64,000 nucleotides of DNA from a virus (lineage: Duplodnaviria; Caudoviricetes), in IMG/VR virus record IMGVR_UViG_3300021387_000141, positions 1 to 64,000 of that record; one strand, written 5' to 3'. A model generated the notes under the pieces. The model ran no database searches, was not told the DNA's origin, and saw only the letters and a list, made by a program, of their open reading frames with translations. Shown piece by piece: positions 10,973 to 63,799 of the stretch. Within the stretch, counting starts at the first letter, position 1; each line of letters begins with the position of its first letter. The position numbers and the translations under genes are program-made.

Positions 10973-10998
10973 TCGCAGTTTTTGCATCTCCTTAAATG
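10973..10998 (+). promoter_or_regulatory. Phage promoter-like motif TCGC-N7-RCA-N4-CT-N2-WWTG
   Basis: tcgc agttttt gca tctcct taaatg. Confidence 0.75.
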
Positions 10999-20260: not shown

Positions 20261-21034
20261 ATGAATTTGGTAAAAACCGGAGGCATGATTGCCAGAGTTA
20301 TCGGCAAAAATGCCCCGATACTGATCAGCGCTGCGGCCGGGATTGGTCTGATAGCGCTTTATATTTTAACGATCAAAGAAACAGAAGAAGCACAGGAAGT
20401 ATTGAATGAAATGCCTGAGGAGGAGACTCAGGGTTTCAAAACTGCGGGAAAAATCGTAAAAATTTATGCTCCTTCTTTTATTTGCCTGATCGTTACCCTG
20501 TTTTGTATCGTAAGTTCGGCTTTGATCAGCCATCATCGGATCCGGGATCTGACGGCGTATGCCGCGGGGCTTAGTGCGGCATTCAATCAATATCGCCAGC
20601 AGATCATTTTTCAAAATGGAAAAGAGATGGATCAGAAAGTGATGGCAAAAGTGGCCAGAGCCCGTGTTGAAGAAGATCCTCCTAAAGATAAAGATGACGA
20701 CAGTGTTTTATGTCTGCTGCCCGGGTATGACTGCTTTTTTCATGTTCCAAGCACGGCGAATGTCTCGGAAGCATTTTTGGAATTGAACAAAAAGATCAAA
20801 GATGGCTATCGGGTGATCGAATTTCCGGAGTTTATGAAACTGGCCAAGGCAAAAGAACCGGTAAAACCGAAATTTTTATGTTATGGCTGGGAAACTTTTT
20901 ATCTGGAAGATAATTACCAGACGGATGCGTTTTATCCGAACATTTTCAAAGAAACAGATGACGATGGTCTGGAATATTATGTGATCGATAATGTTCCGAT
21001 GCCGAGACTGCTGGAAGAAAGGATATTCTTTTGA
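20261..21034 (+). CDS. DUF6353-like protein, paralog 1
   Basis: Two hydrophobic segments then AAYAAGLSAAFNQYR-type helix; same architecture as 21394 and 23381. Confidence 0.6.
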   Translation: MNLVKTGGMIARVIGKNAPILISAAAGIGLIALYILTIKETEEAQEVLNEMPEEETQGFKTAGKIVKIYAPSFICLIVTLFCIVSSALISHHRIRDLTAYAAGLSAAFNQYRQQIIFQNGKEMDQKVMAKVARARVEEDPPKDKDDDSVLCLLPGYDCFFHVPSTANVSEAFLELNKKIKDGYRVIEFPEFMKLAKAKEPVKPKFLCYGWETFYLEDNYQTDAFYPNIFKETDDDGLEYYVIDNVPMPRLLEERIFF

Positions 21035-21393: not shown

Positions 21394-22185
21394 ATGATAA
21401 AAATTCCATTTGGTGCTGCTGCCAGGAGTGTGCTCACCCTGGCAAAAGCAAACGCCACTCCGATTTCCACCGCAATGGTGATCCTCGGAATGGTTTCTGC
21501 GGTCGTTCTGGCGGTAAAAGCCGGAAAAGAATCTGTTGAAGATATTGAGGAAGCCAAAGAAGAGCTTGAAACGGATGAGCTGACTTTCGGAGAAATCATC
21601 CGTGCGACATGGAAACGCTTTCTTCCGGTATTTTTGATCCTTGGTCTGTCGATCGCCTGTCTGGTGGTGAACACGAATCGAATGATGAAGCGCTATGCCG
21701 CATTATCGACAGCATATGCGCTTTCTGAAAGTTATTTGAAAGATTATATGGAAACCACCAAGGAAACGGTCGGCGCGAAAAAAGAACAGCAGATCCGTGA
21801 TGATGTTATGGATAAACAGGTGAAGGACCATCCGTTTGATAAAGAAGCTGAACGTGGGATCGTTGAAACCGGAAAAGGCAATACTTTATTTTATGACGCG
21901 ATCACAACCCGGTTTTTTCGTTCATCCATGGATAAGGTAAAAGCCGCGGAGCGTGACCTTGCCGGGATTTATGCAACGGAAGATGTCGTATATCTGGATG
22001 ATTATACCAATGCTCTCGGGCTTGGTAAATATTCAGAATGCGGAAATTATCTCGGCTGGCAGAAAACCGGTAAATTTGACGGATCCGAAAATCTGATGTT
22101 TGATTATTCTTCCGGTTTGACAGCCAGCGGTGAACCGTATGTGGCAATTTATCATTATCGCAACCGATTGAGCGTTATCCGCTGA
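21394..22185 (+). CDS. DUF6353-like protein, paralog 2
   Basis: KRYAALSTAYALSESYLKDY...TLFYDAITTRFF...LGW. Confidence 0.65.
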   Translation: MIKIPFGAAARSVLTLAKANATPISTAMVILGMVSAVVLAVKAGKESVEDIEEAKEELETDELTFGEIIRATWKRFLPVFLILGLSIACLVVNTNRMMKRYAALSTAYALSESYLKDYMETTKETVGAKKEQQIRDDVMDKQVKDHPFDKEAERGIVETGKGNTLFYDAITTRFFRSSMDKVKAAERDLAGIYATEDVVYLDDYTNALGLGKYSECGNYLGWQKTGKFDGSENLMFDYSSGLTASGEPYVAIYHYRNRLSVIR

Positions 22186-22266: not shown

Positions 22267-22719
22267 ATGTCTAACAATAATAATGTTGTTGAAGGGACTA
22301 CGGTCCCGTTTGTTGAACCCGCTGATAATAGCGGGGTGGAAATCGTCCCTGTTAATCAGGGCGAAATTGAAGAAATCACCCCGGGCCAAATGGCTCTGGG
22401 ATTAGGTGTAACCGCATTGGTCGGTTACGGAATTGGGAAGCTCGGTGAGCTTTTCTATAATAAAATAATTTTGCCCGGCTATGTTAAAGCCGTGGACAAA
22501 ATAGAAGAAAACAAAAAGAAAAGGAACAAAAAGCTGCGCCGAAAGGCAAAGCGCAATGAAGTAATCGTTGAGGCTGAAGAAGCCGAAGACGATAATTTGG
22601 AAGCTCTTGAGGAAGAAGAGCTGGAATATGAAGAAGATGATGAGGAAACTGAAGAAGAACCTCGTCAGGTTTCGAAAAAGGCGGCTAAAAAAGCCGCAAA
22701 GAAAAAGAAGCGTCATTAA
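22267..22719 (+). CDS. Membrane-anchored protein with acidic tract and histone-like basic tail
   Basis: LGLGVTALVGYGIG; EEEELEYEEDDEETEEE; KKAAKKAAKKKKRH. Confidence 0.7.
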   Translation: MSNNNNVVEGTTVPFVEPADNSGVEIVPVNQGEIEEITPGQMALGLGVTALVGYGIGKLGELFYNKIILPGYVKAVDKIEENKKKRNKKLRRKAKRNEVIVEAEEAEDDNLEALEEEELEYEEDDEETEEEPRQVSKKAAKKAAKKKKRH

Positions 22720-23380: not shown

Positions 23381-24310
23381 ATGAATTTAAAACTGATTTT
23401 AGCCAAAACCGGGCTTGTCTTAAAACAGGCAAGCCCTGAACTTTTAACCGGCGGCGGGATTATTCTGAGTATTGCTGCTCTGATCACTGCCTGTTCGAAA
23501 ATGAAAGAAACCGAAGAAGTAAATGAAGAAATCCAGGATGAAATTGAAACCATTCAGGATGAAGAAGAACGCGGAACAAAAGAATATGTCGGCCGCATGT
23601 TTAAACTTGCGATGAAGGCCGTCTGGAAGTATCTGAAGATTTTCTGGATCCCAGTGCTGTTGGAATTGATGTCGATTTTCGGCATCTGGTATTCTCATGG
23701 GATCATGGTGAAACGGAATGCCGATCTGGCTTCAGCGGCAGTGATCCTAACCCAGCAAATGGATAAATATCGAGCCCGGGTCCGGGATAAAGTCGGCGAA
23801 GAAACGGAAAATGATCTGTTTTACGGTCTGACCAATAAAAAAGTCGGTGAAGTGACTGAAGATCTCGGTGATGGAAAAACCAAAAAGCGCCCTATTTATG
23901 AAAAAGAAATGACGGATGGCGCTGAAGGTCCGTTTGACCGTATTTTTGACCGATCGAATCATAACTATCAAAGCACTCCGGGCGCGAACATGGTTTTTCT
24001 GGATATGGTCCGGAAATCCTGTAAAAGCATTATGGAAGGCCGCGCAACGAACCATTCCAACGGCTGGTATTTGATGAGCGAAGTTTACCAGCAGCTTGGT
24101 TACGAACCGACTGCCGAAAGTTTCCATTGGGGCTGGGTCTGGAGTAAGTATGATCCGAAATTCAGCGGTACATTCATTGATTTTGGTATCAATGATTACA
24201 GCGATTCGGTTGTACACGACTTTGTAAATGGTTTGGAACCGGCGATCCCGCTGCATTTCAACTGCCAGCCGGTGGATGTATTTAAAGATCTCAACCTGAT
24301 GAAGATCTAA
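23381..24310 (+). CDS. DUF6353-like protein, paralog 3
   Basis: KRNADLASAA...KYRARVRDKVGEE...EVYQQLGYEPT..GW..IDFG. Confidence 0.65.
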   Translation: MNLKLILAKTGLVLKQASPELLTGGGIILSIAALITACSKMKETEEVNEEIQDEIETIQDEEERGTKEYVGRMFKLAMKAVWKYLKIFWIPVLLELMSIFGIWYSHGIMVKRNADLASAAVILTQQMDKYRARVRDKVGEETENDLFYGLTNKKVGEVTEDLGDGKTKKRPIYEKEMTDGAEGPFDRIFDRSNHNYQSTPGANMVFLDMVRKSCKSIMEGRATNHSNGWYLMSEVYQQLGYEPTAESFHWGWVWSKYDPKFSGTFIDFGINDYSDSVVHDFVNGLEPAIPLHFNCQPVDVFKDLNLMKI

Positions 24311-24577: not shown

Positions 24578-25274
24578 AATTTTGAAAGGAATCCTTCTGT
24601 TTCTTGCAGGAGGAGCGGCCGGTGCAGGCGTTACCGGTTTTATATTTAAACGAAAATTAAATGAAATGGAAGAATCGATTGACGATATCGTTGAAGAACG
24701 CGTTGAAGAGATCGCCGAGATTCGTATGGACGAAGATTTTGATGACGAAGAAGAGGACGAGGAAGAAGATGATGAACTGGATGAAGAAAGTGATGACGAA
24801 GATGATTCGGATATTGATGAGGAAAAACTGACGGAGATCACACAAAGCGTCGTGAAAAAGATCAACCGGGCGCGCACCGCAAAACCCGATCCGATCGAAC
24901 TGGCAAAAGAACTGGTTGATAAAAACAATTATGTCAGTTATTCCGGAAAAAAAGATCCCGTAACGAAAAACGAAACCCCTGATGATTACTGGGTCGAACA
25001 GAACGAACCGGAAGATATCGAAATCATCAGCCCACAGGAATTCGGCGACATCGCCGGTTATGATAAGGTTAATTTATATTTCCTCAGCCGGGATGAAGTC
25101 CTGGTCGATGATGAAGGGAACCCGGTAGAGAACATCGTTTCCTTGATCGGTCCGGACGCATTGGAGAATTTCGGTACTTATGAACCGGATTCTGTCTGCG
25201 TGCGGAACAACCGCCTGGAAACTGATTTTGCGATTTTTATCCGGAACGAGACCCTTTCCAATTTCTCATTATAA
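24567..25274 (+). CDS. Membrane-anchored highly acidic protein
   Basis: N-terminal ILLFLAGGAAGAGVTGFIF; long D/E tract. Confidence 0.75.
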   Translation: MNNEILKGILLFLAGGAAGAGVTGFIFKRKLNEMEESIDDIVEERVEEIAEIRMDEDFDDEEEDEEEDDELDEESDDEDDSDIDEEKLTEITQSVVKKINRARTAKPDPIELAKELVDKNNYVSYSGKKDPVTKNETPDDYWVEQNEPEDIEIISPQEFGDIAGYDKVNLYFLSRDEVLVDDEGNPVENIVSLIGPDALENFGTYEPDSVCVRNNRLETDFAIFIRNETLSNFSL

Positions 25275-26056: not shown

Positions 26057-26303
26057 CCATAAGAAATATGACAACAATGATTTTTATCAAAACGGGAAAG
26101 ATCTGCAGCGTCTTGAAGATCAGATGACCATGCAGCAGCTTATCAATAAAGATCATGACCGCAGGCTGCGTTTTGCCGGACTCGGGATCATCACCCTTTC
26201 CGGGCTGACTTATTTGTGTGTCAGCTGTATCAAAGAACTTTATCAGCGCATAAGAAAACTGGAAGAACGGAACGAACCGACCGAAAAGAATGATGAGGCC
26301 TGA
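26043..26303 (+). CDS. Small membrane-anchored protein
   Basis: FAGLGIITLSGLTYLCV helix; overlaps start of the polymerase gene. Confidence 0.6.
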   Translation: MKFNNHKKYDNNDFYQNGKDLQRLEDQMTMQQLINKDHDRRLRFAGLGIITLSGLTYLCVSCIKELYQRIRKLEERNEPTEKNDEA

Positions 26304-29300
26304 TGGATTTTTTAGAGATCACCGAATCTGAAACAAAAAAAGGTACGGAGATCTATCCAAGCTTCATTGTCAACAACAAAACAACTGATCTGATGGTTCG
26401 CGGTAAAGATTTTTATGCCGTGTGGGTCGAAGAAAAAGGAATGTGGTCCACGGACGAACAGGACCTGATCGAACTGGTCGACAGCGAACTGGACCAATAT
26501 TACGAAGCAAACAAGGGCAAATGGGAACGGCGTCCGAAAATTCTTCATCTTCGCCGTGGAAACACAAAGATGATCGATGTTTTTCATCATTACTGCAAAG
26601 ATCAGATGCGTGAAAACTTTCATCCGCTGGATGAAAAATTGATATTTGCAAACCAGAAAACGAAAAAGAAGGACTATGCCAGTAAAAGATTGAACTATCC
26701 TTTGGAAAAAGGTCCGATCACCGCATGGGACCATATCCTGTCCGTTTTATATTCTGATGAAGAACGTCATAAGATCGAATGGTCCATTGGTTCGATCATC
26801 AGCGGAGATTCGAAAACGAATCAGAAGTTCGCGGTATTTTACGGACCCCCGGGTTCCGGTAAATCCACCATTCTGGACGTTATTGAGAAACTGTTCAAAG
26901 GATATTATTGTGTGTTCGATGCAAAATCGTTAGGCTCTTCCAACAGCCGTTTTGCATTGGAACCGTTCAAGATCAATCCGCTGGTCGCGATCCAGCATGA
27001 CGGTGATCTATCCAAAATTGAAGATAACCATTTGCTGAATTCGATCGTTTCTCATGATGAAATCCAAATCGAAGAAAAATTCAAAAGCCAATACCCGATG
27101 CGCTTTAAATGTTTTCTCTTTATGGGGACAAACAAGCCGGTGCGGATCACAGATGCAAAGTCCGGTCTGCTGCGGCGTCTGATTGATATTTCCCCGAAAG
27201 GGAAAGAAAAAATTCCCCGAAAAGAGTACAACGCACTGATCAAAATGATCGACTTTGAACTTGGTGCGATCGCGTGGCACTGCAAACAGGTCTATCTGGA
27301 AGACCCGCAGTATTACGACGACTATGTACCTTTGAAGATGTTGAACGCGTCAAATGATTTCTTTAATTTTGTCGCGGACAACTATTTTGTATTTAAAAAT
27401 GAAGACGGAATTACCCGGAATGCCGCTTATGAAAAGTATAAGGCTTATTGTGATGAAGCCAAGGTGACCTATCCGCTTTCCAGGCGCGCTTTCGGGGAAG
27501 AACTGACAAACTATTTTGATAATTTTGCGGACCGTGTTGTTCTGGAAGACGGGACCCGTGTACGAAGCTGGTACAGCGGTTTCCGTTCTGATAAATTTGA
27601 ACAGCAATGGAAAAAGAAGGATGAACCGGCAGAAAAGGATCCGAAAGAAAGATCCTGGCTGGAATTCAACAGCAAAGTAAGCCTGTTGGATGAAATGTTG
27701 AAAGATTGCCCTGCGCAATATGCAAACAGTGAAGGAACACCTCAGAAAGCATGGGACAGCTGTTTTACCAAACTTTCCGGGATCGATACGCATAAACTGC
27801 ATTATGTGAAAGTTCCGCTGCAGCATATTGTTATTGACTTTGATATTCCGGATGAAAACGGAAATAAGTGCTTTGAAAAAAATCTGGAAGCAGCTTCAAA
27901 ATGGCCACCGACTTATGCCGAACTCAGCAAAAGCGGAGCCGGGATCCACCTTCATTATATTTATCAGGGGGATCCGCTGGAACTGCGGATGAATTATGAT
28001 GACCACATTGAGATCAAGGTTTTTAATGGCGGCAGCAGCCTGCGAAGAATGCTGACACTGTGTAATACGATTGCCGTAGCCGTGATCAGTTCCGGTCTCC
28101 CCTTGAAGGAGAAAAAGAAAGTGGTAAATTTCAAGTCGTTCATCAACGACAAAGCGCTGATCAAAGCCATTGAACGAAACCTGAACAAAGAAAATGTGAA
28201 CGGCACATACAACAGCGTCAATCTGATCTATAAGGATCTGGAACGGGCTTATGCGGACGGCCTCCGTTATGACGTGCGGAAAATGAAGGACTCAATCCAT
28301 GATTTCGCCGCCAATTCGACGCATCATGACAAAGAAGCGATCAAGCTGGTCAACAAAATGAAGCTCTGTTCGGATGATTTTCTGGAACCTGAACCGATCC
28401 CTGAAGAGCAACCACAGACGAACTTCCCATTGATATTTTTCGATGTGGAAGTTTTTATTAATCTGCTGCTGATCTGCTGGAAGTATCCGGGTCCGGATAA
28501 AAAAGTCATACGGATGTTCAACCCCAGTCCCGAAGAGGTCTACTCACTGATGACCAATTACCGGCTGGTCGGGTTCAACTGCCGCAGATATGACAACCAT
28601 ATTCTGTATGCAAGAGCGCTCGGAAAAAACCTGAAACAGATCTATGAAGTTTCTCAGGGCATTATCAATAAAGATAAAAATGCATTTTTCCGGGAAGCGT
28701 ATGATGTTTCCTATACGGATATTTATGACTTCAGCAGTGTGAAACAATCTCTGAAAAAATTTGAGATCGATCTCGGGATCCATCATAAGGAATTGCCGAT
28801 CCCATGGGATCAGCCCTGTCCGGAGGAACGATGGAATGAAGTAGCGGAATATTGTGATAATGATGTGATCGCTACGGAAGCGGTGTTCAACGCCCGTCAG
28901 GATGATTTTCTGGCAAGGGAAATTCTGGCAGACATTGCCGGAATGAACGTAAACACCACGACCAACACGCTGACCACGCGGATCATTTTCGGAACAGACC
29001 GCGCGCCGCAGAACCAGTTCAATTATCGGAACCTTGCGGAACCGGTCGGTGCGGATCAGTATCAGAAGTATCGTGAACTTTTTGGAGCGGATTATGAATT
29101 TCGAGTATTTGACGAACGGGGATTGCCGCTGTACGAAACCTATCAGGGAGGACAGCTCTCGGCTGGATACTCTATCCTTCCGTTCTTCCCCGGATATGAA
29201 TTCGATGCCGGCAAATCCACCTATCTTGGTGATGAGATCGGAGAAGGCGGACGTGTATATGCTGAACCCGGCATGTATGCAGATGTGGATGCGGAAGACG

Positions 29301-30322
29301 TGACCTCCATGCACCCGCATTCGATCTGGGCGGAACGCTTGTTCGGTCCGAAATACAGCAAAAAGTTCTATGACCTGGTTGAGATCCGTGTAGCGATCAA
29401 AAAGGCGATCAAAACCGGAAATTATGACGATGCTTCCATGCTGATGGAAGGCAAGCTGACGAAATGGCTGACCAACGAAGACCAGGCAAAAGGCCTCGCG
29501 AACGCTTTGAAGATCGCGATCAACTCCGTATACGGTCTGACCAGCGCCCGGTTTGAAAACCCGTTCCGTGATATTCGGAACAAGGACAACATCGTTGCCA
29601 AACGCGGCGCTTTATTTATGACACTGCTGAAGCAGGAAGTCCAAAAGAGGGGTTTTCAGGTCTGCCATATTAAGACCGACTGTATCAAGATCCCGAATGC
29701 CACCCCGGAGATCATTGATTTCGTAAGGACATTCGGTAAAGAATTCGGTTACAGTTTCGAATGTGAAGCGCTTTATGACCGGTTCTGTCTGGTTAACGAC
29801 GCCGTTTATATTGCTCATGATAAAAACTGGCGCAAAGCGGTCGAAAAAGAAAAGGACCCGGTGAAAAAAGCAAAACTGGAACTGCTGAAAGGCTGGACCG
29901 CGACCGGGACCCAATTCCAGATCCCGTATGTGTTCAAAACCTTATTCACCCGGGAGCCGATCGAATTTGAAGATATGTGCGAAACCAAGCAGGTTACCAC
30001 CTGTTTATATCTGGATAAAGATGAAAATCTTCCGGAAGGTGAGCATGATTATCAATTCGTCGGACGCGTCGGCCAGTTTTGTCCGGTGAAATCCGGGCGG
30101 AACGGCGGACGGCTCGTTCGGGAAGCGACCGATAAAAACGGAAACGTCAAATACGATTCCGCCACCGGTGCGAAAGATTACCGCTGGATGGAATCGGAAG
30201 ATATCCGTGACTTCGGAAACGCAGATTATTGGATCGACCGCGGATATTATGACCGTCTGGTGGATGAAGCAGTCAATGATATTTCACAGTATGGCAATAT
30301 CGATTGGTTCCGTGATGTGTAA
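26303..30322 (+). CDS. Fused SF3 helicase - primase-like - family B DNA polymerase (with 3'-5' exonuclease)
   Basis: Walker A GPPGSGKST; IVIDFD...ELSKSGAGIHLHY prim-pol-like motifs; Exo I FFDVEV, Exo II GFNCRRYD, Exo III YCDND; PolB motifs DVTSMHP, KIAINSVYG, KTDC. Confidence 0.88.
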   Translation: MDFLEITESETKKGTEIYPSFIVNNKTTDLMVRGKDFYAVWVEEKGMWSTDEQDLIELVDSELDQYYEANKGKWERRPKILHLRRGNTKMIDVFHHYCKDQMRENFHPLDEKLIFANQKTKKKDYASKRLNYPLEKGPITAWDHILSVLYSDEERHKIEWSIGSIISGDSKTNQKFAVFYGPPGSGKSTILDVIEKLFKGYYCVFDAKSLGSSNSRFALEPFKINPLVAIQHDGDLSKIEDNHLLNSIVSHDEIQIEEKFKSQYPMRFKCFLFMGTNKPVRITDAKSGLLRRLIDISPKGKEKIPRKEYNALIKMIDFELGAIAWHCKQVYLEDPQYYDDYVPLKMLNASNDFFNFVADNYFVFKNEDGITRNAAYEKYKAYCDEAKVTYPLSRRAFGEELTNYFDNFADRVVLEDGTRVRSWYSGFRSDKFEQQWKKKDEPAEKDPKERSWLEFNSKVSLLDEMLKDCPAQYANSEGTPQKAWDSCFTKLSGIDTHKLHYVKVPLQHIVIDFDIPDENGNKCFEKNLEAASKWPPTYAELSKSGAGIHLHYIYQGDPLELRMNYDDHIEIKVFNGGSSLRRMLTLCNTIAVAVISSGLPLKEKKKVVNFKSFINDKALIKAIERNLNKENVNGTYNSVNLIYKDLERAYADGLRYDVRKMKDSIHDFAANSTHHDKEAIKLVNKMKLCSDDFLEPEPIPEEQPQTNFPLIFFDVEVFINLLLICWKYPGPDKKVIRMFNPSPEEVYSLMTNYRLVGFNCRRYDNHILYARALGKNLKQIYEVSQGIINKDKNAFFREAYDVSYTDIYDFSSVKQSLKKFEIDLGIHHKELPIPWDQPCPEERWNEVAEYCDNDVIATEAVFNARQDDFLAREILADIAGMNVNTTTNTLTTRIIFGTDRAPQNQFNYRNLAEPVGADQYQKYRELFGADYEFRVFDERGLPLYETYQGGQLSAGYSILPFFPGYEFDAGKSTYLGDEIGEGGRVYAEPGMYADVDAEDVTSMHPHSIWAERLFGPKYSKKFYDLVEIRVAIKKAIKTGNYDDASMLMEGKLTKWLTNEDQAKGLANALKIAINSVYGLTSARFENPFRDIRNKDNIVAKRGALFMTLLKQEVQKRGFQVCHIKTDCIKIPNATPEIIDFVRTFGKEFGYSFECEALYDRFCLVNDAVYIAHDKNWRKAVEKEKDPVKKAKLELLKGWTATGTQFQIPYVFKTLFTREPIEFEDMCETKQVTTCLYLDKDENLPEGEHDYQFVGRVGQFCPVKSGRNGGRLVREATDKNGNVKYDSATGAKDYRWMESEDIRDFGNADYWIDRGYYDRLVDEAVNDISQYGNIDWFRDV

Positions 30323-33055: not shown

Positions 33056-33318
33056 TCGTTTTATATTCAACCGGATGCCCGCTTTGTAAAACTCTTGAAA
33101 TGAAGTTAAACCAGGCGGGCGTCTCTTATACCAAAATTACGGATACCGAAGAGATGGAAAAGCTTGGTTTGCAATCTGTGCCGGTGCTTTCCGTGAATGG
33201 TGAACTGATGTATTTTTCAGATGCGATGAAATACGTATCCGGTAACCTTTCAGGAAGCATCCACATGGCTAACGAGGAGAACCGAATAAATGAAGATCAA
33301 CATCAAACTGGATCCTGA
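33052..33318 (+). CDS. nrdH: Glutaredoxin/NrdH-like redoxin
   Basis: YSTGCPLC CxxC motif; SVPVL cis-Pro motif. Confidence 0.8.
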   Translation: MIVLYSTGCPLCKTLEMKLNQAGVSYTKITDTEEMEKLGLQSVPVLSVNGELMYFSDAMKYVSGNLSGSIHMANEENRINEDQHQTGS

Positions 33319-35209
33319 TTTTTCTTATGAATTTACAAAATTGAAAAGCATTTATGGTGAAGATCTGGCTGCGCTGAACGGACTTTCGGACAGCCAACTG
33401 GATTACACCGATTTTATTGATAACTTTATTGATACCGAAACGGTGGCGGACGCTTCCGTGGATGCAAATGCCAACGTTTCCAACAAATCCGTAGTCACGC
33501 TGCTGAATGAAATGGCAAAACCGCATCAGAAGCTGCTGGCTTTCAATAAGATATTTTATGAAATGAAAAAGAAATATGGCCTCGAAACTGCCAGACACTG
33601 GCTGGAAACGGAATGGATCGGTGCGCTTTATATGCATGATGCGCATCATGCCTCTTACCTGCATTACTGCTGGGCATCCAGCCTGCAGGACCTGGCGGAA
33701 AAAGGCCTGTACTTCATTGATAATTTCAATGCGGAACCCCCGAAACATTTGGGGACTTTTGTTGATTTTGTCAAGGAGTTCATCAGCTTCTGCGCAAACA
33801 GCTCCTCCGGTGCGGTCGGGCTCCCGGATCTGATCATCTATATGTATTATTTCTGGGATCGGGATATCCAAAAAGACTATTACACCGAAACACCGGTGAA
33901 GTACGCTAAACAGCAGATCCAGCGGCTGATCTATGCTTTGAACCAGCCGTTCCTGCGCGGAAACATTCAATCCGCTTTTACCAATACTTCTATTTTTGAC
34001 CATCCTTATCTGGAAGCGCTGTTCGGCGGGATGACTTTTCCGGATGGAAAGCTCATGTATGACGAGATCGAAGAGATCATGAATTTCCAGAAACTTTTTA
34101 TGGAAACCATGCATGAAATTCGGGAAAAGAACATGATGACTTATCCGGTCAACACGATCAGTCTGCTGAAAGATGAAAACGGAAACTTTGTGGATGAGCC
34201 TTTTGCTGAATGGGCCTGCGAACAGAACATGAAGTGGTGCGACAGCAATTTCTTCATTGATGACTCGGTCACCAGCCTCAGTTCCTGCTGCCGGCTTTCC
34301 AACAACGTGAAAGACCTTTACATGAACTCGATCGGCGGCACCGCGCTGAAGGTCGGTTCGGAAAAGGTGAACACGATCAATCTGGCGATGATCGCTTATG
34401 AATCCAAAGGTGAAAAGGACAAATACTTTGATATTCTGAAAGATCGTGTTGAGATCTGCCTGAAGGCTTTGGATGTCGTCCGTCATATCATCCAGCGGAA
34501 TATCGAAAAAGGGCTGATGAAGAACTTTGATAAAGGCATCGTGGAAATGGATAAACTGTATTCCACGATCGGGATCATCGGGATCTATGAAACACTGGAA
34601 AAATTCGGCTATGTAAAAAAAGACGATTTCGGCTACACCACCTATACGGAAGAAGGATTGACATTTGCCGAAGAGATCCTGAAGTTCATCCATAAAATGA
34701 AAGATGAATTTAAAAAGGATCAGGCCGTTGACTACATGATCAACATCGAAGCCGTCCCGGCGGAAAGCGCCGCGGCAAAGCTGATGCAGAAAAACAAGAT
34801 TCTGTTCCCGGATGAAAAGTATGACCTTCCGCTTTACGCGAACCAGTGGATTCCGCTGGCGGTTCGCACTTCGATCCAGAACAAGATTGATATTTCCGCA
34901 CGGCTGGATGAAGCCTGTACCGGCGGGTCGATCTGCCATATTAATATTGACAGCCCATTCCAGAGCTTTGATATTGCCTGGGACCTGCTGCGGGATCTGG
35001 CGAAATCCGGCGTGAAGTATTTCGCTTTCTGCACCCGGATCAGCGCCTGTAAACACAACCATGGTTTTTACGGCGAAACCTGTCCGGTCTGCGGAGAAAA
35101 GAAAGTGACGACTTACCAGCGGATCGTCGGATTTCTGACACCCGTACGGAGCTACAGTGAGCCGCGTAAGGAGGAATTCTATATGCGGGATTGGATGAAA
35201 GTCGAATGA
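33290..35209 (+). CDS. nrdD: Anaerobic (class III) ribonucleoside-triphosphate reductase, no ATP cone
   Basis: YMHD N-terminal motif; SSCCRL finger loop; EAVPAESAA; C-terminal CKHNH..CPVC zinc site and glycyl-radical loop YQRIVGFL. Confidence 0.9.
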   Translation: MKINIKLDPDFSYEFTKLKSIYGEDLAALNGLSDSQLDYTDFIDNFIDTETVADASVDANANVSNKSVVTLLNEMAKPHQKLLAFNKIFYEMKKKYGLETARHWLETEWIGALYMHDAHHASYLHYCWASSLQDLAEKGLYFIDNFNAEPPKHLGTFVDFVKEFISFCANSSSGAVGLPDLIIYMYYFWDRDIQKDYYTETPVKYAKQQIQRLIYALNQPFLRGNIQSAFTNTSIFDHPYLEALFGGMTFPDGKLMYDEIEEIMNFQKLFMETMHEIREKNMMTYPVNTISLLKDENGNFVDEPFAEWACEQNMKWCDSNFFIDDSVTSLSSCCRLSNNVKDLYMNSIGGTALKVGSEKVNTINLAMIAYESKGEKDKYFDILKDRVEICLKALDVVRHIIQRNIEKGLMKNFDKGIVEMDKLYSTIGIIGIYETLEKFGYVKKDDFGYTTYTEEGLTFAEEILKFIHKMKDEFKKDQAVDYMINIEAVPAESAAAKLMQKNKILFPDEKYDLPLYANQWIPLAVRTSIQNKIDISARLDEACTGGSICHINIDSPFQSFDIAWDLLRDLAKSGVKYFAFCTRISACKHNHGFYGETCPVCGEKKVTTYQRIVGFLTPVRSYSEPRKEEFYMRDWMKVE

Positions 35210-52722: not shown

Positions 52723-52748
52723 TCGCGAAATTTACATCCCCTCTTATA
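52723..52748 (+). promoter_or_regulatory. Phage promoter-like motif upstream of the nuclease/RNAP operon
   Basis: tcgc gaaattt aca tcccct cttata. Confidence 0.65.
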
Positions 52749-52830
52749 GAGAGAAGTAGATATTACATCGACTTTTCGGTTTTGTCTTACAAGACTTTTT
52801 GAGACCATGAACACATGGCCTCTTCTTTTT

Positions 52831-52997
52831 TAAGAACAGCGTTTGTCCGCTTTCCACTTTTCAGCCCACTTCCAATGTTTGGCTTAATCGTGCTAACGAC
52901 CTTTTTCATTTTTACTCCTTTCAAATAGATGAATCCTTCTAAATAATCAACATTTTCCGCTCCGGACGTAAGTGGAAGGCGGATGAGCGCTGTTCTT
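52831..52997 (+). ncRNA. Long stem-loop RNA 1 (28-bp helix, loop antisense to phage RBS/start regions)
   Basis: 52831-52858 pairs with 52970-52997 at all 28 positions (4 G.U). Confidence 0.7.
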
Positions 52998-53020: not shown

Positions 53021-53311
53021 ATGCTCGAACGAAAGTTTCAATCCAAAGTTATTTCTGAATTGAAAGAGCTCTTTCCCGGCTGCGTTATTTTAAAGAATGA
53101 CGCGAACTATCTTCAGGGGATCCCTGATATTTTGATCCTCTATGAAGATCGCTGGGCTATGCTCGAAACAAAAAAATCTGCAAAAGAACATAAACAACCT
53201 AATCAGGAATATTACGTCGACAAGCTGAATCGCATGTCCTTTTCAAAATTTATTTATCCGGAGAACAAGGAGGAAGTTTTTTATGAACTTCAACGTGCAT
53301 TCAAATCTTGA
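53021..53311 (+). CDS. VRR-NUC family nuclease (Holliday junction resolvase-like)
   Basis: ERKFQSKV...GIPDILIL...MLETK PD-(D/E)xK pattern. Confidence 0.8.
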   Translation: MLERKFQSKVISELKELFPGCVILKNDANYLQGIPDILILYEDRWAMLETKKSAKEHKQPNQEYYVDKLNRMSFSKFIYPENKEEVFYELQRAFKS

Positions 53312-53846
53312 AGGCCGCCATGCATTTTTAGGTGCGAGCAAATACCATTGGATCAACTATGACGAAAGCAAGATCGCTGAAGCATACCGAAATGACCTGG
53401 CAAAAGAACGCGGAACCATATTGCATGATTTTGCTTCCCAGTGTATTCGGCTGAACCAGCGTCTGCCGAAATCCTCGCAGACATTGAACATGTTTGTGAA
53501 TGACGCGATCGGCTATAAGATGCGTTCCGAACAGCCGCTATATTTCAGCGAGAACTGTTTCGGGACCGCGGATGCGATCTGTTTTCGGAAGAACCTGCTG
53601 CGCATCCATGACCTGAAGACCGGTTTCACACCGGCGCATATGGAGCAGCTCTATATTTACAATGCGCTATTTTGCCTTGAGTACCATTTCGATCCGCATG
53701 AGATCGAGACCGAACTTCGTATTTATCAGTCGAATGAGGTCTTATGTGAAGAACCGGATCCGGACAATATTTCTGAAATTATGGAAAAGATCAAAGCTTT
53801 TGACAAAATTTTACGAGATATTCAGCTGAAGGAGAGTGAAGCCTGA
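53283..53846 (+). CDS. PD-(D/E)xK (Cas4/DUF2800-like) exonuclease
   Basis: RGTILH...SEQPLY...FGTADAI...IHDLKTG...QLYIY. Confidence 0.75.
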   Translation: MNFNVHSNLEGRHAFLGASKYHWINYDESKIAEAYRNDLAKERGTILHDFASQCIRLNQRLPKSSQTLNMFVNDAIGYKMRSEQPLYFSENCFGTADAICFRKNLLRIHDLKTGFTPAHMEQLYIYNALFCLEYHFDPHEIETELRIYQSNEVLCEEPDPDNISEIMEKIKAFDKILRDIQLKESEA

Positions 53847-56655
53847 TATGAGCAATAGTACAGCAATTAATATTTTAATTACCATGGCTAAGAAAGCCAA
53901 AAACCCGACGGTCAAGGATATTTTGCTTAGCGCAGCGGACATGAGCGATTCCGATTTTATTATGCATTACGGAACAAAGCGTCACTCCGGACGATATCCC
54001 TGGGGTTCAGGCGACAATCCATATCAGCATGAAATCGATTTTTTGAATCGTGTCCGCAAGATGCGGAACAAGGGATATTCCGAACTGACCATTGCAAAGA
54101 AGTGCGGATATTCTACGACCAGCGAACTGCGTTCCGCAGTCCGTTCGGCCAATAATGACATTTCTCAATATCGTATCCAGTGGGCCAACCAGTTATTAAA
54201 AGATGGCTTGACCCAGACCGAAGCCGCCCGGCGCATGGATATTCCGGAATCGACATTTCGTTCGATCATGGACAAACAGCGACAGGCCCGCGCTAATAAA
54301 GCGCAGTCGACTGCTAATTTTCTGAAATCCGTTGTTGACGAACGCGGCCCGATCGATATTGGTGCCGAAGTCAACCGTGAATTGAATATTTCCAACGAGA
54401 AACTGACACAGGCAGTCGATATTTTAAAGAAGCAGGGTTATGAAGTCCGTGTCGGTTCCATGCCTCAGGTAACGAATGAGCATGGCCAGCGGACGACCCT
54501 TAAAATTTTATGTCCTCCCGGATCTCCGAAGAACCAGGCATATTTGTATGACGATATTTCTCCGTTATTTGACTATGCCAAAGAATATTCTTCTTCCGAT
54601 GGAGGCAAAACTTTCGATAAATTCGAATATCCTGCATCCATGGACTCCAAAAGAATATTTGTCCGATATTTGGAAGACGGCGGTGCGGACCGTGACGGAT
54701 TAATTGAACTCCGCCGCGGTGTTGAGGATTTATCGCTCGGCGGTTCCCGATATTCTCAAGTCCGAATATTAGTGGACGGGAATAAATATATGAAAGGAAT
54801 GGCCGTATATTCCGACAATATTCCGGATGGCTACGATGTTATTTACAACAGCCGTAAGTCCAGGGAAAAGGGCGAAGACCCGTTTAAGGATATTAAAAAA
54901 GATGACCCGACGAACCCCTTCGGTTCCTATATTTCACCAAGGGGTCAGAGCCATTATATTGACTCGAAGACCGGAGAACGAAAATTATCTCTGATCAATA
55001 AACGTGCCGACGAAGGCGACTGGAACGACTGGTCCAAGTCCCTGCCTTCCCAATTTTTGTCCAAGCAGAACAAGAAGCTGATCGAGAATCAGTTAAATTT
55101 GTCCATTGCTGACAAGATGGCCGAGTACGAGGATATTTGCAACCTGACCAACCCGACCGTAAAGCGCCGATTATTAGAGACCTTTGCTGAGGATTGTGAC
55201 GCGACTTCCGTCCATCTGGACGCGGCTGCCCTTCCCAGACAGCGCTATCAGGTTATTATTCCGCTGCCCTCCCTAAAGAAGGATCAAATTTATGCTCCGA
55301 ATTTTAAGGATGGCGAGAAAGTGGCTTTGGTCCGCTACCCTCATGGCGGGATTTTTGAGATCCCCGTCCTTACCGTAAATAACAAAAATCGGGAAGGGAT
55401 TTCTATATTATCTAAAAATCCGACCGACGCCGTAGGCATCAATATTGAGGCCGCCAAACAGCTGTCCGGCGCGGACTTTGACGGTGACACGGTCATGGTG
55501 ATCCCGTTATCCTCTAAGGTGCAGGTCTCTCACAGACCATATTTGGACGCCCTGAAAGGCTTCGACCCTGAAGTCGAATATCCGAAACGTGAAGGCATGA
55601 AGCCCATGCAGCGTACGGATATTGAGATGGGCAAGATCACCAATCTTATTATGGACATGACTCTTGCAGGCGCCCCTGAAGACGAGGTTGCCCGTGCCGT
55701 CAAGCACTCCATGGTTGTTATTGACGCCAAGAAGCACGAGCTTGACTGGCAGCTCTCTGAAGAACAGAACAAGATCAAGGAGCTGAAGGACAAGTATCAG
55801 GGCCACTATGATGAGAACGGCCGCTGGCGCCATGGTTCGGGTACCATCGTGACCCGTGCCAAGAGCCCGGAACGCGTCACCAAACGCCGTGGTGAGTTCG
55901 ACATCGATCCCGAGACAGGCAAGAAGATCTGGAAGGAAGCCTTCGATGCTCACTACGAAGACGCAAAGGGCAAGCCCAAGACGCGTACTCAGGAAAGCTA
56001 CCGAATGCTCGAGACCGATGACCCTTACAGTCTTGTCTCCGGCATGAACACGCAGACCGAACAGCTTTACGCCCGCTATGCGGCGCAGCTGAAAGCGCTG
56101 GCCAATCAGGCACGTAAAGAGTACAAGTACAACACGCCGAACCTGGAATACAGCCCTTCGGCTCACAAAGTGTACAAGAAGGAAGTCGATTCCCTCACTG
56201 AAAAGCTGCGCCAAAGCCGCTTGAACGCTCCCCGTGAACGTGAAGCGCAGCGCCGCGCCAATGTGCAGCTGGAACGGCTTTTTAAAGAAAATCCGGAACT
56301 CCGGGACGATAAAAAACAAAGAGGCAAATACGCTCAGCAATATTTGACCGCTGCCCGTGTGGCAGTAGGCGCTCAGCGCTATAAGATTGAGATCACGCCG
56401 GCCGAATGGACCGCGATCCAGGCCGGAGCAATATCTGACAGCCTGCTGAAGCAAATATTAGACGCAACGGACACCAATACGGTGCGCGAATACGCGACTC
56501 CGCGCAATTCAGACACCATGTCCAATGCTAAAAAAGCCAGATTATTTTCTCTTCGTCGTTCCGGTTACAGTAATGCGGAGATCGCAGACGCGCTCAATGT
56601 GCCTGTCTCGACGATCCTTTATTACGTACGCCAGGAAAAAGAAGGCAAACTCTAG
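53836..56655 (+). CDS. Putative single-subunit two-barrel (DPBB) DNA-dependent RNA polymerase with terminal HTH domains
   Basis: LSGADFDGD (55468-55488) catalytic loop preceded by LVRYP; QVRI..KG; HSMVVIDAKKH; HTHs TQTEAARRMDIPESTFRS and SNAEIADALNVPVSTI. Confidence 0.72.
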   Translation: MKPDMSNSTAINILITMAKKAKNPTVKDILLSAADMSDSDFIMHYGTKRHSGRYPWGSGDNPYQHEIDFLNRVRKMRNKGYSELTIAKKCGYSTTSELRSAVRSANNDISQYRIQWANQLLKDGLTQTEAARRMDIPESTFRSIMDKQRQARANKAQSTANFLKSVVDERGPIDIGAEVNRELNISNEKLTQAVDILKKQGYEVRVGSMPQVTNEHGQRTTLKILCPPGSPKNQAYLYDDISPLFDYAKEYSSSDGGKTFDKFEYPASMDSKRIFVRYLEDGGADRDGLIELRRGVEDLSLGGSRYSQVRILVDGNKYMKGMAVYSDNIPDGYDVIYNSRKSREKGEDPFKDIKKDDPTNPFGSYISPRGQSHYIDSKTGERKLSLINKRADEGDWNDWSKSLPSQFLSKQNKKLIENQLNLSIADKMAEYEDICNLTNPTVKRRLLETFAEDCDATSVHLDAAALPRQRYQVIIPLPSLKKDQIYAPNFKDGEKVALVRYPHGGIFEIPVLTVNNKNREGISILSKNPTDAVGINIEAAKQLSGADFDGDTVMVIPLSSKVQVSHRPYLDALKGFDPEVEYPKREGMKPMQRTDIEMGKITNLIMDMTLAGAPEDEVARAVKHSMVVIDAKKHELDWQLSEEQNKIKELKDKYQGHYDENGRWRHGSGTIVTRAKSPERVTKRRGEFDIDPETGKKIWKEAFDAHYEDAKGKPKTRTQESYRMLETDDPYSLVSGMNTQTEQLYARYAAQLKALANQARKEYKYNTPNLEYSPSAHKVYKKEVDSLTEKLRQSRLNAPREREAQRRANVQLERLFKENPELRDDKKQRGKYAQQYLTAARVAVGAQRYKIEITPAEWTAIQAGAISDSLLKQILDATDTNTVREYATPRNSDTMSNAKKARLFSLRRSGYSNAEIADALNVPVSTILYYVRQEKEGKL

Positions 56656-56669
56656 AAAGGAGCTCAATC

Positions 56670-56987
56670 ATGGAGAAAGATCAGACCTGTTACCTGACAA
56701 CGTTCGACAATCCGTTCAATCCTGACACACAGTTCGATCTATGGTTGGACTTCGACATCGATCACGGCTATTACAGCTGCGCTTACCTGGATCGGATCGC
56801 CAAGATCAGTCCCGCAATGAGCGAGATCGAGAAGGAACTGGAGATTGAACGCGCGATTGACGAGATCATCAAATATGACTTCCGAAATATATACACAAAA
56901 ATATACGTAAAAAAACAAAATGACACCCCCGTTGTTGATGACGACGAGGATTTTGACAAATTAATTGACCGCAGCCATTACGCATAA
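56670..56987 (+). CDS. Conserved-type phage hypothetical protein
   Basis: RBS aaggag; LTTFDNPFNPDTQFDLW..FD..HGY. Confidence 0.75.
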   Translation: MEKDQTCYLTTFDNPFNPDTQFDLWLDFDIDHGYYSCAYLDRIAKISPAMSEIEKELEIERAIDEIIKYDFRNIYTKIYVKKQNDTPVVDDDEDFDKLIDRSHYA

Positions 56988-57133: not shown

Positions 57134-57170
57134 AATAGCCCTTTGAAGAGTGATTCAAAGGGCTTTGTTT
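57134..57170. terminator. Hairpin upstream of packaging operon
   Basis: agccctttgaa-gagtga-ttcaaagggct, 11-bp perfect stem. Confidence 0.5.
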
Positions 57171-57206
57171 AATGAAAGAAAAGACAAATGGATATTTTAG
57201 AAGGAT

Positions 57207-59082: not shown

Positions 59083-59646
59083 ATGGATTTTGACGAATTA
59101 AAACATTGGGGAATCTTTGGTATGAAATGGGGCGTCCGTCGTTATCAAAATGAAGACGGCTCTTTGACAGATGAAGGGCGGGAACATTATAATGTCGGCC
59201 CTGCTAGAACCAAAGGCTATGAACGAGCAGAAGGCAATTTTAATAGAAATCGTTCTGATAATTATAACATTTCTAAAAAAAATAAGAGCTCTATATTTGA
59301 TTCTAAAAACAAAAAACAAAAATTGCCGGAATTAATGTCAGATGATGAATTGTTTAAGATGACAAAAAGATTTAAAAGCCAGGCAAATTTTTATAATGCG
59401 CAAAATGACTATATAAAAAGTAAAGCATATAATGCTGAACTCACCAAAAAGAAAAGCAAATTAGGACAATTTTTAAATAAAATATTAGTCCAACCCGCAG
59501 AAAATGTATTATCAAGAAGTGTTGAATTTGGATTATCTGTAAGTACTGCGGCCTTTCTGGATTCTATAGATTCAAAATATGCAGATGATTATACAAAATT
59601 TGTTCTAAAAAGTGGTAATAAAAATAAAAAGAAAGATGATGATTAA
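59083..59646 (+). CDS. ELxHxG..GMKWG (DUF7211-like) tagged protein 1
   Basis: MDFDELKHWGIFGMKWGVRRYQNEDGSLTDEGREHY. Confidence 0.75.
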   Translation: MDFDELKHWGIFGMKWGVRRYQNEDGSLTDEGREHYNVGPARTKGYERAEGNFNRNRSDNYNISKKNKSSIFDSKNKKQKLPELMSDDELFKMTKRFKSQANFYNAQNDYIKSKAYNAELTKKKSKLGQFLNKILVQPAENVLSRSVEFGLSVSTAAFLDSIDSKYADDYTKFVLKSGNKNKKKDDD

Positions 59647-61391: not shown

Positions 61392-62033
61392 ATGAATGAC
61401 TATGAATTGAAACATTATAGAACTCCGGGTTCAAAAAACGGAGTTCGCAAGTATCAAAATTATGATGGGACTTTGACGCCATTGGGTTATATACATTATG
61501 GTATAGAAAAAAACGGAAAAAGCTACAGCGGAAATAAAACATTAGAGAAAAAAAGCGGATGGAATACTGTTAAAACTATAAATAAATATAACCCAAGCCG
61601 TTTGCTTAGAGAACCTATTGATATAGCTATAAATATGCATGATGGTTCTAATATAAGAAAACGTAAAAATGTTACGGGCGGAGTATCTATTTCTAAAAAA
61701 GAAAATGATCAAACTGTACAAAATATACAGGAATCTTATAAACCCGTAGAGCAGCAATTAGAGAAAGCTGCACAAGAACATTATGACGGTGTTTATTTGT
61801 CAGATTTAATGAGTAATGCAAACCGTCAAATATTGGCAGCCGGTGATCAATTTGTTCATAGTCCTATCGTTAAAGAAAAAATGATACGAGGTGGTTTTAC
61901 TGAGTCATTGATTAGAGTAATTCAATATTTATCTAAAAATCCGGACGACTATTCTAAAAATAGATCCATTATAAAATCTCCGGCCTATTGGATGAACTTT
62001 GGTGGTAGACCAAGAATTAATCAAACACGATAA
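61392..62033 (+). CDS. ELxH-tagged (DUF7211-like) protein 2
   Basis: YELKHYRTPGSKNGVRKYQNYDGTLTPLG. Confidence 0.7.
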   Translation: MNDYELKHYRTPGSKNGVRKYQNYDGTLTPLGYIHYGIEKNGKSYSGNKTLEKKSGWNTVKTINKYNPSRLLREPIDIAINMHDGSNIRKRKNVTGGVSISKKENDQTVQNIQESYKPVEQQLEKAAQEHYDGVYLSDLMSNANRQILAAGDQFVHSPIVKEKMIRGGFTESLIRVIQYLSKNPDDYSKNRSIIKSPAYWMNFGGRPRINQTR

Positions 62034-62043
62034 AGGAGGTTAT

Positions 62044-62958
62044 ATGCTGGATTTAGTACATACAGATATTTATCCCAATGATGAATTGAAACATTGGGGT
62101 GTTTTAGGAATGAAATGGGGCATCCGGCGTTTTCAAAATCCAGATGGATCATTAACTCCTGAAGGAAGAGAAAGATATGGAGTTAAATCTGCTCATGAAG
62201 CCAGAAAATTATCTTATGCTAAAGAATATTTAGTATTAAAACAAAAGAAAAATAGAACAGAAAAAGAAAATGAACGACTTAAAATCCTTGAAAAAGGAAA
62301 AAAACATTTTGAAAGAAGTATTAATGATGCTGATTATTGGGAAAAAATGAAAGATAATTATAGCTTAGATGAATATGAAGACGCTTCACAGGCTTATCAA
62401 CAATATTTTAATTCTACTAATTATGGTAAAGGCATGAATGAAGCTAAAGCTTTAATGAGCATTCCTACGACTATAATTGGGGCTGCAATAGATGCCGGTG
62501 CTATTTATGCACAATTTAATCTCGGTTCGCCGGTCGCTTTTTATGGTATTCCAACTGCTTTAGGACTTGGAATAGGTGCTAATATTGGTGAATCAAAATA
62601 TGAAGAAAAGCATTTAGAAGAATTAAAGAAAGAATTAAATAGCAATAATACTAAAAATAAAAATTATGAGTTTGAAAAGCATATTGTTAAAAATCCTAAA
62701 AAAGAATTAAATGACTATCACAATAGGCTTGAAAAACGGAGAAAAAATTCAAATTCATCTTATTATCGTGATGCAACAGCTGTTAATTCAGCTGCTAAAA
62801 AGGCAATTGAAATAATAAATGAAGATAAAGCGTATTCAATGGTATTTTCAAACCCTAATTATTATTTAAATAACGGCCAATGGACATTTGAAGGTAAAAC
62901 ATATGGATCTGTAGATGGCCTTGTGAACGCTTTAATAAAAAGTGATGTTATAAAATAA
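62044..62958 (+). CDS. ELxH-tagged (DUF7211-like) protein 3 (start at ATG 62044)
   Basis: RBS aaggagg; DELKHWGVLGMKWGIRRFQNPDGSLTPEGRERY; internal hydrophobic Gly/Ala segment. Confidence 0.75.
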   Translation: MLDLVHTDIYPNDELKHWGVLGMKWGIRRFQNPDGSLTPEGRERYGVKSAHEARKLSYAKEYLVLKQKKNRTEKENERLKILEKGKKHFERSINDADYWEKMKDNYSLDEYEDASQAYQQYFNSTNYGKGMNEAKALMSIPTTIIGAAIDAGAIYAQFNLGSPVAFYGIPTALGLGIGANIGESKYEEKHLEELKKELNSNNTKNKNYEFEKHIVKNPKKELNDYHNRLEKRRKNSNSSYYRDATAVNSAAKKAIEIINEDKAYSMVFSNPNYYLNNGQWTFEGKTYGSVDGLVNALIKSDVIK

Positions 62959-62974: not shown

Positions 62975-63799
62975 ATGTATAGTAATTATATGTATAGTAA
63001 TGCACCTGCATCCAGCCGCAGAGGTGGTGGATCCTGGGTTTATGTAAATGGAGAACTTTATCATTTTGGTATTAAAGGTATGAAATGGGGTGAACATCTT
63101 CCATTTACTGATTATTGGAAAGTTGGCAAGAATGCTTATGGCAATTATATGAAAAAAAACACAACAGTAGGATTTAATAAAGATGCTAACGGTGTAATGA
63201 CAACTTATAATAAAAAGCCTAGCAAGCTTAAAGCTTTTGGATATGCAGTCAATGCAGCTGGTACTTATGCTCGCAATCGAGCTCGTAATGATATTCGTCG
63301 TGCTAAAGACGCCGCTATAAATAAACGTAATGCTATTAACCAGAACATTCGATATAAAACCACAGACCGATATTATAGTAATTTAAATAATTTTTCAGAG
63401 GGCATGAAAAATATGCCGACGTCACATTTGGAAGAACGAATGGGGAAATTGCTAAATAGAGGCAATGATTATATTGAAGCTCTCAAACAGAATCCAAATA
63501 GCGGCATTGCAGTATTGAATTTGGCTATTAAAAATGCACAATTTAATGTACTGAATGGCATTAATAGTTTTCTTAAAAAAACAGGACTTGATAAAAAAGT
63601 AGATAAATTCTTAAGCAAATTCTTGGGTGAATCCAATGCTGTTAAAAGTGCTCGCTTAGCTGAAAAATCTGCTAATTTACCAAAGATTGGACCTACCAAC
63701 ACTCGGGGCTATGATCGTGCCGAAGCTGCTTCGCCAAGTTATACATTTGACACAAGAGTTAAACGAGCTGCTAAAAAACCTAAAGGTGTTTTAGTATAA
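62975..63799 (+). CDS. ELxH-tagged (DUF7211-like) protein 4, very basic
   Basis: GELYHFGIKGMKWG; Lys/Arg/Asn-rich body. Confidence 0.75.
   Translation: MYSNYMYSNAPASSRRGGGSWVYVNGELYHFGIKGMKWGEHLPFTDYWKVGKNAYGNYMKKNTTVGFNKDANGVMTTYNKKPSKLKAFGYAVNAAGTYARNRARNDIRRAKDAAINKRNAINQNIRYKTTDRYYSNLNNFSEGMKNMPTSHLEERMGKLLNRGNDYIEALKQNPNSGIAVLNLAIKNAQFNVLNGINSFLKKTGLDKKVDKFLSKFLGESNAVKSARLAEKSANLPKIGPTNTRGYDRAEAASPSYTFDTRVKRAAKKPKGVLV

Follow-up and report, generated by a model that had tools for sequence, protein, structure and literature searches.

Two-barrel polymerases do all cellular transcription, and their small single-chain versions show the minimum of the fold and are candidate orthogonal transcription tools. 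YonO of SPbeta (phrog_8308), a single-chain two-barrel phage polymerase, was shown to be DNA-dependent (PMC5467207), and gp64 and gp96 of the Thermus phage P23-45 are DNA-dependent as well (bioRxiv 10.1101/2022.12.01.518664). QDE-1 of Neurospora and RDR2 of plants are silencing enzymes that act on RNA or single-stranded DNA and are not promoter-driven, QDE-1 also accepting DNA templates (PMC9508822). Here we describe a gene at 53836–56655 for a predicted single-chain two-barrel RNA polymerase flanked by helix-turn-helix (HTH) domains, in a 64,000-nucleotide stretch of phage DNA (the window) that covers positions 1 to 64,000 of a complete IMG/VR record of 90,190 bp with terminal repeats (IMGVR_UViG_3300021387_000141). 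Coordinates refer to the plus strand unless stated otherwise. The enzyme is likely to be a sigma-independent, DNA-dependent RNA polymerase that uses a conserved motif of this genome as its promoter.

The protein joins a family that publications and databases already recognise. Ruprich-Robert and Thuriaux (2010) recognised five "YonO-like" families, one of which is the protein of phage 1706, and placed YonO and the 1706-type proteins in separate ones (PMC2919709). Koert et al. (2021) described the protein in FP_oengus, in 1706-type phages and in an actinophage supercluster, noted an HTH at both ends and the DxDGD loop, and proposed RNA polymerase activity; HHpred of their family alignment led to an RNA-dependent RNA polymerase (RdRP) at 95.7% probability, and their text makes no mention of promoters (bioRxiv 10.1101/842583). 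A preliminary description of the window, made from its letters, had implied that the polymerase prediction was new; both papers, as well as the names given in PHROG 4291 and RefSeq, precede it.

The match of the protein to PHROG 4291 is full-length (E = 0, 1083.8 bits; residues 34–932 against profile positions 4–906 of 909). The family's product name there and in RefSeq is "RNA-dependent RNA polymerase", and GenBank records of homologues mostly read "helix-turn-helix DNA-binding domain protein". A tblastn search recovered homologues in 250 phage genomes, with 33–45% identity over ~95% of the length, from phages of Arthrobacter, Gordonia, Streptomyces, Curtobacterium, Microbacterium, Rhodococcus (ReqiPepy6), Lactococcus (the 1706 group) and Faecalibacterium (FP_oengus). 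Named homologues include Lactococcus phage 1706 ORF75, FP_oengus gp55, ReqiPepy6 gp106 and Arthrobacter phage Mudcat gp94. An exhaustive HMMER search of metagenome proteins clustered at 50% identity matched 2263 representative clusters at E ≤ 0.001 and 820 at E ≤ 1e-30. With 250 isolate genomes and at least 820 clusters, the family is very common, and the window, taken by itself, offers an ordinary finding: nothing in the protein itself sets the window copy apart from known homologues.

The window phage shares with 1706, FP_oengus, ReqiPepy6 and Mudcat the HTH–core–HTH layout, the gene order (endonuclease, exonuclease, polymerase, small open reading frame, then HNH and terminase genes) and the promoter-like motif described below. 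It differs from them in being a larger, 90-kb ruminant-gut phage with an integrase and an anaerobic ribonucleotide reductase. The value of the locus lies in a sharply testable model, a defined enzyme with a candidate promoter of 26–30 nt, and not in gene discovery.

Fold and Active Site

The open reading frame (ORF) at 53836–56655 runs for 939 codons from a GTG, as the preliminary description had reported, and its translation holds the strings singled out there (LVRYPHGG...INIEAAKQLSGADFDGDTVMVIP, QVRILVDGNKYMKG, GKITNLI and HSMVVIDAKKH). The true start is most likely the ATG at 53848, giving 935 aa, because the GTG immediately abuts the Shine–Dalgarno sequence AGGAGA (53830–53835), the stop codon of the upstream exonuclease gene lies at 53844–53846, and an identical database protein has 935 aa. 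Residue numbers in this text count from the GTG at 53836.

An AlphaFold2 model of the protein reached a mean predicted local distance difference test score (pLDDT) of 88.4 and a predicted template modelling score of 0.79. A fold with two double-psi beta-barrels, the point on which the preliminary description had staked its prediction beforehand, is present: the best Foldseek match in the PDB was QDE-1 (E = 2e-8), followed by plant RDR2, the Thermus-phage proteins gp62/gp64 and gp96, and beta'/Rpb1 subunits, and every PDB match at E ≤ 0.001 was a two-barrel RNA polymerase. In BFVD, the matches were phage "RdRPs", P23-45 gp64, proteins of crAss-like phages and giant-virus polymerase subunits. 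Structural alignment to QDE-1 (residues 679–1186) and RDR2 (517–976) begins at the first barrel. In the model, the two barrels lie in one chain and form one active site, the arrangement that defines the superfamily. Searches of the PDB by sequence, whether with the single protein or with a family profile, returned HTH matches and no polymerase, so the link to polymerases of known structure runs only through the comparison of folds.

The first, beta-subunit-like barrel (residues 262–392; 54619–55011), delimited by structural alignment and invariant residues, carries D287 (54694–54696) and the motif Q308-x-R310...K320-G321 (54757–54798). The second, beta'-like barrel (residues 470–557; 55243–55506), delimited by alignment and by weak matches to a Pfam RdRP family and to phrog_8308, carries R500-x-P502-H503 (55333–55344) and the metal-binding loop D547-F-D549-G-D551 (55474–55488), whose three Asp codons stand where they had first been placed. 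Two long helices follow the catalytic loop in the AlphaFold2 model and the alignment (residues 594–634; 55615–55737); they bear the invariant residues M598-G599, N603-L604, D630, K633 and H634, belong to the part that aligns with QDE-1, RDR2 and gp62, and by their position would be the bridge helix.

Conservation across the family was assessed in an alignment of 89 relatives at 42–83% identity. D287, Q308, R310, K320, G321, R500, P502, H503, D547, D549, D551, D630, K633 and H634 are invariant in all of them, and the polymerase motifs proposed from the sequence are accordingly real and not a chance resemblance. Eight residues are invariant in all two-barrel polymerases, being D709, R738, K743, R962, P964, D1007, D1009 and D1011 in QDE-1 (PMC2919709). 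They correspond here to D287, R310, K320, R500, P502, D547, D549 and D551, a mapping made by motif order, spacing and structural span and not by residue-level superposition. The spacing is near that of QDE-1, with 47 against 45 residues from R to D and 23 against 29 from D to R.

The label of most GenBank records would suit a protein that is only a DNA-binding regulator or a packaging-recognition factor with a dead polymerase core; the HTH regions weakly resemble those of small terminases (phrog_4102, E = 7e-5; Terminase_5, E = 0.04), and in relatives the gene adjoins the genome end and the packaging genes. Against such a role, the eight catalytic residues and many of their neighbours are invariant in the 89 sequences, whose overall identity is only 42–55%, and such a pattern points to selection on catalysis. 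We regard a dead core as highly improbable, and it is almost certain that the protein is active as a two-barrel polymerase of nucleotides.

In the mechanism that we propose, a single polypeptide of ~106 kDa would have its catalytic core at residues 262–770. Mg-A, the catalytic ion, would be bound by D547, D549 and D551 of the second barrel, and Mg-B with the help of D287 of the first. Contacts to the RNA 3' end and to the incoming nucleoside triphosphate would come from R310 and K320, and the active-site strand would owe its shape to R500 and P502. These roles are carried over from the two-barrel superfamily.

Comparison with Related Polymerases and the Likely Template

Sequence identity to QDE-1 and RDR2 is only 12–16%, and neither of those enzymes has HTH domains. 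The non-virion RNA polymerases of the Thermus phages, P23-45 gp64 and P74-26 gp62, are ~600 aa long, lack fused HTH domains, have no detectable sequence similarity to the window protein and belong to another phage lineage and host. YonO also lacks HTH ends, and SPbeta lacks the promoter-like motif. A weak local match to phrog_8308 covers a 90-residue stretch at the catalytic barrel (residues 478–570, E = 1.4e-4, 21.5 bits), whereas YonO itself scores 1220 bits on that profile, and between the family profile and YonO as a single sequence hhalign produced no polymerase alignment (probability 0.2). The homology is thus local and does not extend over the length of YonO, and we do not assign the protein to the YonO family (phrog_8308).

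The structural ranking, with RDR2 and QDE-1 as the best matches, could also mean that the protein is a true RdRP copying phage or host RNA, for example into double-stranded or antisense RNA. The sole polymerase match in Pfam, to the RdRP family PF05183, points the same way (residues 538–603, E = 0.0075), but at 15.4 bits it falls under the gathering cut-off of 23.8 and covers those residues only. We therefore rejected membership of PF05183, the family of QDE-1 and RDR1/2/6; the relation to the cellular RdRPs is one of remote homology rather than membership. The database product name, for its part, was taken from the Pfam family name and not from an assay. DNA templates would suit a protein with three or four fused DNA-binding HTH domains and a phage with a promoter-like motif across its genome, and every phage member of the superfamily that has been assayed is DNA-dependent. 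An RNA template is, in our judgement, quite improbable. In the favoured model the enzyme would copy the double-stranded DNA of the phage, and would do so without a sigma factor.

Helix-Turn-Helix Domains

HTH domains, located at both ends of the protein, are the only domains that Pfam places above its cut-offs. The N-terminal one (residues 113–149; 54172–54282) matches HTH_23 (9.3e-9) and HTH_28 (9.4e-7) and appears as helices in the AlphaFold2 model, where a second helical, HTH-like unit occupies residues 69–89. The C-terminal one (residues 897–935; 56524–56640) resembles sigma region 4: HTH_38 (6.1e-7) and Sigma70_r4_2 (1.3e-6) match at residues 902–933, the latter with 28.3 bits against a cut-off of 25.7. 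In the whole 90-kb genome there are just two matches of the sigma region 4 type, and these are the C- and N-terminal HTHs of the polymerase; no sigma region 2 and no sigma factor gene were detected in it.

We propose that these HTH domains, two at the N-terminus and one or two at the C-terminus, read a promoter of 26–30 nt with a purine-rich start region. If so, the protein would unite "core plus sigma" in a minimal natural fusion.

A Promoter-like Motif in the Phage Genome

The candidate promoter has the consensus TCGC-R-N6-ACA-N4-CT-N-TAATGAG and spans 26–30 nt. Its strict form, TCGC-N7-RCA-N4-CT, which is the pattern given in the preliminary description, occurs 21 times in the window against 0.63 expected, always on the plus strand. 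A position weight matrix (PWM) run over the 90,190 bp at a threshold of 21.7 bits found 22 copies on the plus strand and none on the minus strand, all starting between 10973 and 52723 and none in the structural module. The first 21 copies (10973–45637; strict pattern and PWM) each precede an early or replication-module gene and start at 10973, 11297, 11751, 12207, 12518, 13827, 13942, 14098, 17099, 19625, 22187, 39473, 39656, 39892, 40441, 40744, 41583, 41746, 42103, 45065 and 45603. The last copy (52723–52756; PWM score of 29.5 bits) heads the polymerase operon. Usually a terminator hairpin lies upstream of the motif, and a short hairpin, a ribosome-binding site and the gene lie downstream.

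The same motif was found in relatives of the phage. FP_oengus has 12 copies, Mudcat 6 and ReqiPepy6 16, in front of early genes and with all or almost all of them on the coding strand. A diverged version, TTTTACA-N5-CTATAGTAGA, occurs in phage 1706, and no copy was found in SPbeta, the control phage. Across 80 polymerase loci from IMG/VR, the PWM matched 191 times on the coding strand and once on the opposite one; 190 matches lay upstream of the polymerase gene, none inside it and one downstream. In all 65 loci with enough upstream sequence, a copy lies 911–1403 nt (median 952) 5' of the polymerase gene, at the head of the endonuclease–exonuclease–polymerase operon. The association was also approached from the other side, by an exact-pattern scan that gave at least 120 stretches; among near-complete genomes chosen by the motif alone, 21 of 23 encode a full-length polymerase. 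The motif is tied to polymerase-carrying phages by position and by co-occurrence, and it is conserved in such phages of both Firmicutes and Actinobacteria.

The host's own polymerase might instead recognise the motif, through a non-canonical upstream element or with a small phage activator, and the two-barrel protein would then make replication primers or non-coding RNA. A hexamer resembling TATAAT does occur in many copies, and in Mudcat and ReqiPepy6 the match is perfect. However, in most of the Firmicutes-phage relatives this last part of the motif has decayed to TTTTAT or TTTATG, a poor −10 element for want of the critical second A, while the rest of the motif and its spacing stay fixed. 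There is no usable −35 element at 16–18 nt, and since the TTTACA-like and TATAAT-like parts are just 5 nt apart, a spacing that sigma70 cannot use, the motif is not a sigma70 promoter. Its architecture is kept across hosts of two phyla. The phage also has its own primase-polymerase, a fusion protein of 1339 aa at 26303–30322, and no sigma factor gene was detected in its genome. We judge a host-type promoter to be unlikely.

Several observations weigh against the motif being read by the two-barrel enzyme. Co-occurrence and position are no proof of recognition and say nothing of binding, and a small phage-encoded factor acting with the host polymerase could yield the same pattern. A good TATAAT lies inside the motif in the actinophages and in some copies of the window phage. 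A single metagenome project supplied many of the IMG/VR loci, so the loci are not fully independent, and we found no biochemical assay of any PHROG 4291-type family member in the literature. We nevertheless favour the two-barrel enzyme as the reader of the motif; the genomic evidence fits both the DNA dependence and the HTH-based promoter recognition that we infer. The model expects rifampicin-resistant initiation a few bases after TAATG.

A separate observation concerns a perfect sigma70 consensus (TTGACA, 18 nt, TATAAT; 12/12) at 59164–59193 (+). It lies inside the ORF at 59083–59646, before the large terminase gene, and could be a host-type late promoter or a chance occurrence.

Possible Delivery in the Virion

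The virion RNA polymerase of N4 and gp66 of crAss-like phi14:2, which are carried in the particle and transcribe early genes from phage-specific promoters, are the functional analogues that we propose for the window enzyme. The N4 enzyme is T7-like and not of the two-barrel type. By contrast, phi14:2 gp66 is, like the window protein, a QDE-1-like two-barrel enzyme, and fragments from crAss-like phages are among the BFVD matches; it exceeds 2000 aa and belongs to a podovirus. For the window enzyme, a place in the particle is suggested by two things, namely the annotation of its 1706 homologue and a shared N-terminal peptide.

The depositors of the 1706 genome (EU081845) annotated ORF75 as a "structural protein", a label that the ReqiPepy6 record repeats. 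The peptide, HYG-x-x-R-H-SGRYPWGSG-x-x-PYQH (residues 40–66; 53953–54033), is predicted to be disordered (pLDDT < 55) and is the protein's most conserved stretch outside the catalytic core, with G46, S51, G52, R53, G57 and G59 invariant in the 89-sequence alignment. In a related IMG/VR phage (G006) two small ORFs on the flanks of the large terminase gene begin with it, and a 162-aa ORF of another relative (G023) also carries it. A hidden Markov model (HMM) of the peptide matches these ORFs at E values of 1e-15 to 1e-17, and positions 8–136 of PHROG 4291 match them too. By these sequence matches the peptide behaves as a portable module, and at the terminase-flanking ORFs it may serve as a packaging or virion-targeting tag. 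The link that it makes between the polymerase and the terminase-flanking proteins is suggestive.

The logic of the promoter model leads in the same direction. If only this enzyme reads the motif, and its own gene lies behind a copy of the motif, then some enzyme must arrive with the DNA. Together with the 1706 label and the recurrence of the peptide beside the terminase gene in relatives, this suggests that virions may contain some of the enzyme and inject it, as those of N4 and crAss-like phages do.

Other results speak against delivery in the particle. The 1706 label is an annotation, presumably one that stems from virion mass spectrometry. Run over the 90-kb genome, the peptide HMM matches the polymerase only: the DUF7211-type ORFs starting at 59083, 61999 and 62975 are unmatched, and the one at 61392 scores E = 8. 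The window ORFs at the same positions as those of G006 (59083–59646 and 61392–62033) carry a DUF7211-like variant that the peptide HMM does not see. On balance, we put the chance that the polymerase is delivered in the virion at somewhat short of even.

A tag shared between the polymerase and other proteins of the window phage itself was considered and is not supported statistically, the support being confined to G006 and G023. Four ORFs around its large terminase gene (59083–59646, 61392–62033, 61999–62958 and 62975–63799) open with (E)L.H[WF]G..GMKWG; their bodies are unrelated, and two of the four match Pfam DUF7211.

In its widest form, the model would cover a large set of siphoviruses infecting Firmicutes and Actinobacteria, among them those like 1706, FP_oengus, ReqiPepy6 and Mudcat and thousands of gut and soil relatives. 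These phages would bring a self-sufficient two-barrel polymerase in the virion, targeted there by its N-terminal peptide, and would express early genes, replication genes and the polymerase gene from a ~28-nt promoter read by the HTHs, with neither host polymerase nor sigma factor. We offer this extension tentatively and consider it doubtful as a whole. Were it true, virion transcription systems of a third kind would stand beside those of N4 and the crAss-like phages.

Polymerase Operon

In the window phage and in four of four reference phages, a cassette of endonuclease, exonuclease, polymerase and small ORF stands behind the last copy of the motif, and we propose that this copy drives these genes as one operon. 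The leader contains a long stem-loop (52831–52997, ~29-bp stem) with a folding energy of −88.5 kcal/mol (z = −6.84 against shuffled sequences), followed by a T-run and then by the ribosome-binding site of the endonuclease gene; the stem may regulate the operon. The first gene (53021–53311) encodes a small endonuclease (phrog_93, 3.5e-13), and FP_oengus, Mudcat, ReqiPepy6 and 1706 each have a gene annotated "endonuclease" at the corresponding place. Next comes a Cas4-like exonuclease gene (53283–53846; phrog_3953, 3.5e-80), which shows synteny in relatives and is translationally coupled to the polymerase gene. A small conserved ORF (56670–56987; phrog_4303, 1.3e-29) lies directly after the polymerase gene, as does its equivalent in four of four reference phages.

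A terminator-like hairpin with an 11-bp stem and a T-rich tail, found by a consensus scan only, lies at 57137–57174 and is a candidate for the end of the operon, ahead of the packaging genes. HNH and terminase genes come after it. Many related contigs end 300–450 nt past the polymerase gene, and ReqiPepy6 has an annotated cos end there, which indicates that in many relatives the operon lies at one physical end of the genome.

Within the polymerase match, one in-frame TGA was reported in each of four IMG/VR genomes (G008, G016, G017 and G022), and a TAG and a TAA in G006. These could be terminal stops, recoded stops or signs of a broken gene.

Other Features of the Phage Genome

The phage is probably temperate, since it encodes a tyrosine integrase on the opposite strand (9312–10541, −). 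This gene, the primase-polymerase fusion and an anaerobic ribonucleotide reductase (NrdD, 33290–35209) make a gene set that fits an anaerobic gut host. A search of sequencing runs found DNA of the phage recurring in sheep, bovine and other animal gut metagenomes. Only one RNA run was matched, through contigs with small shares that display neither transcript starts nor strand and so carry no information on transcription.

Three paralogues of phrog_2152 lie at 20261–21034, 21394–22185 and 23381–24310, and at a comparable place FP_oengus has three genes annotated as DUF6353. Acidic repeats rich in Asp and Glu are encoded at 22600–22656, 23512–23566 and 24717–24824.

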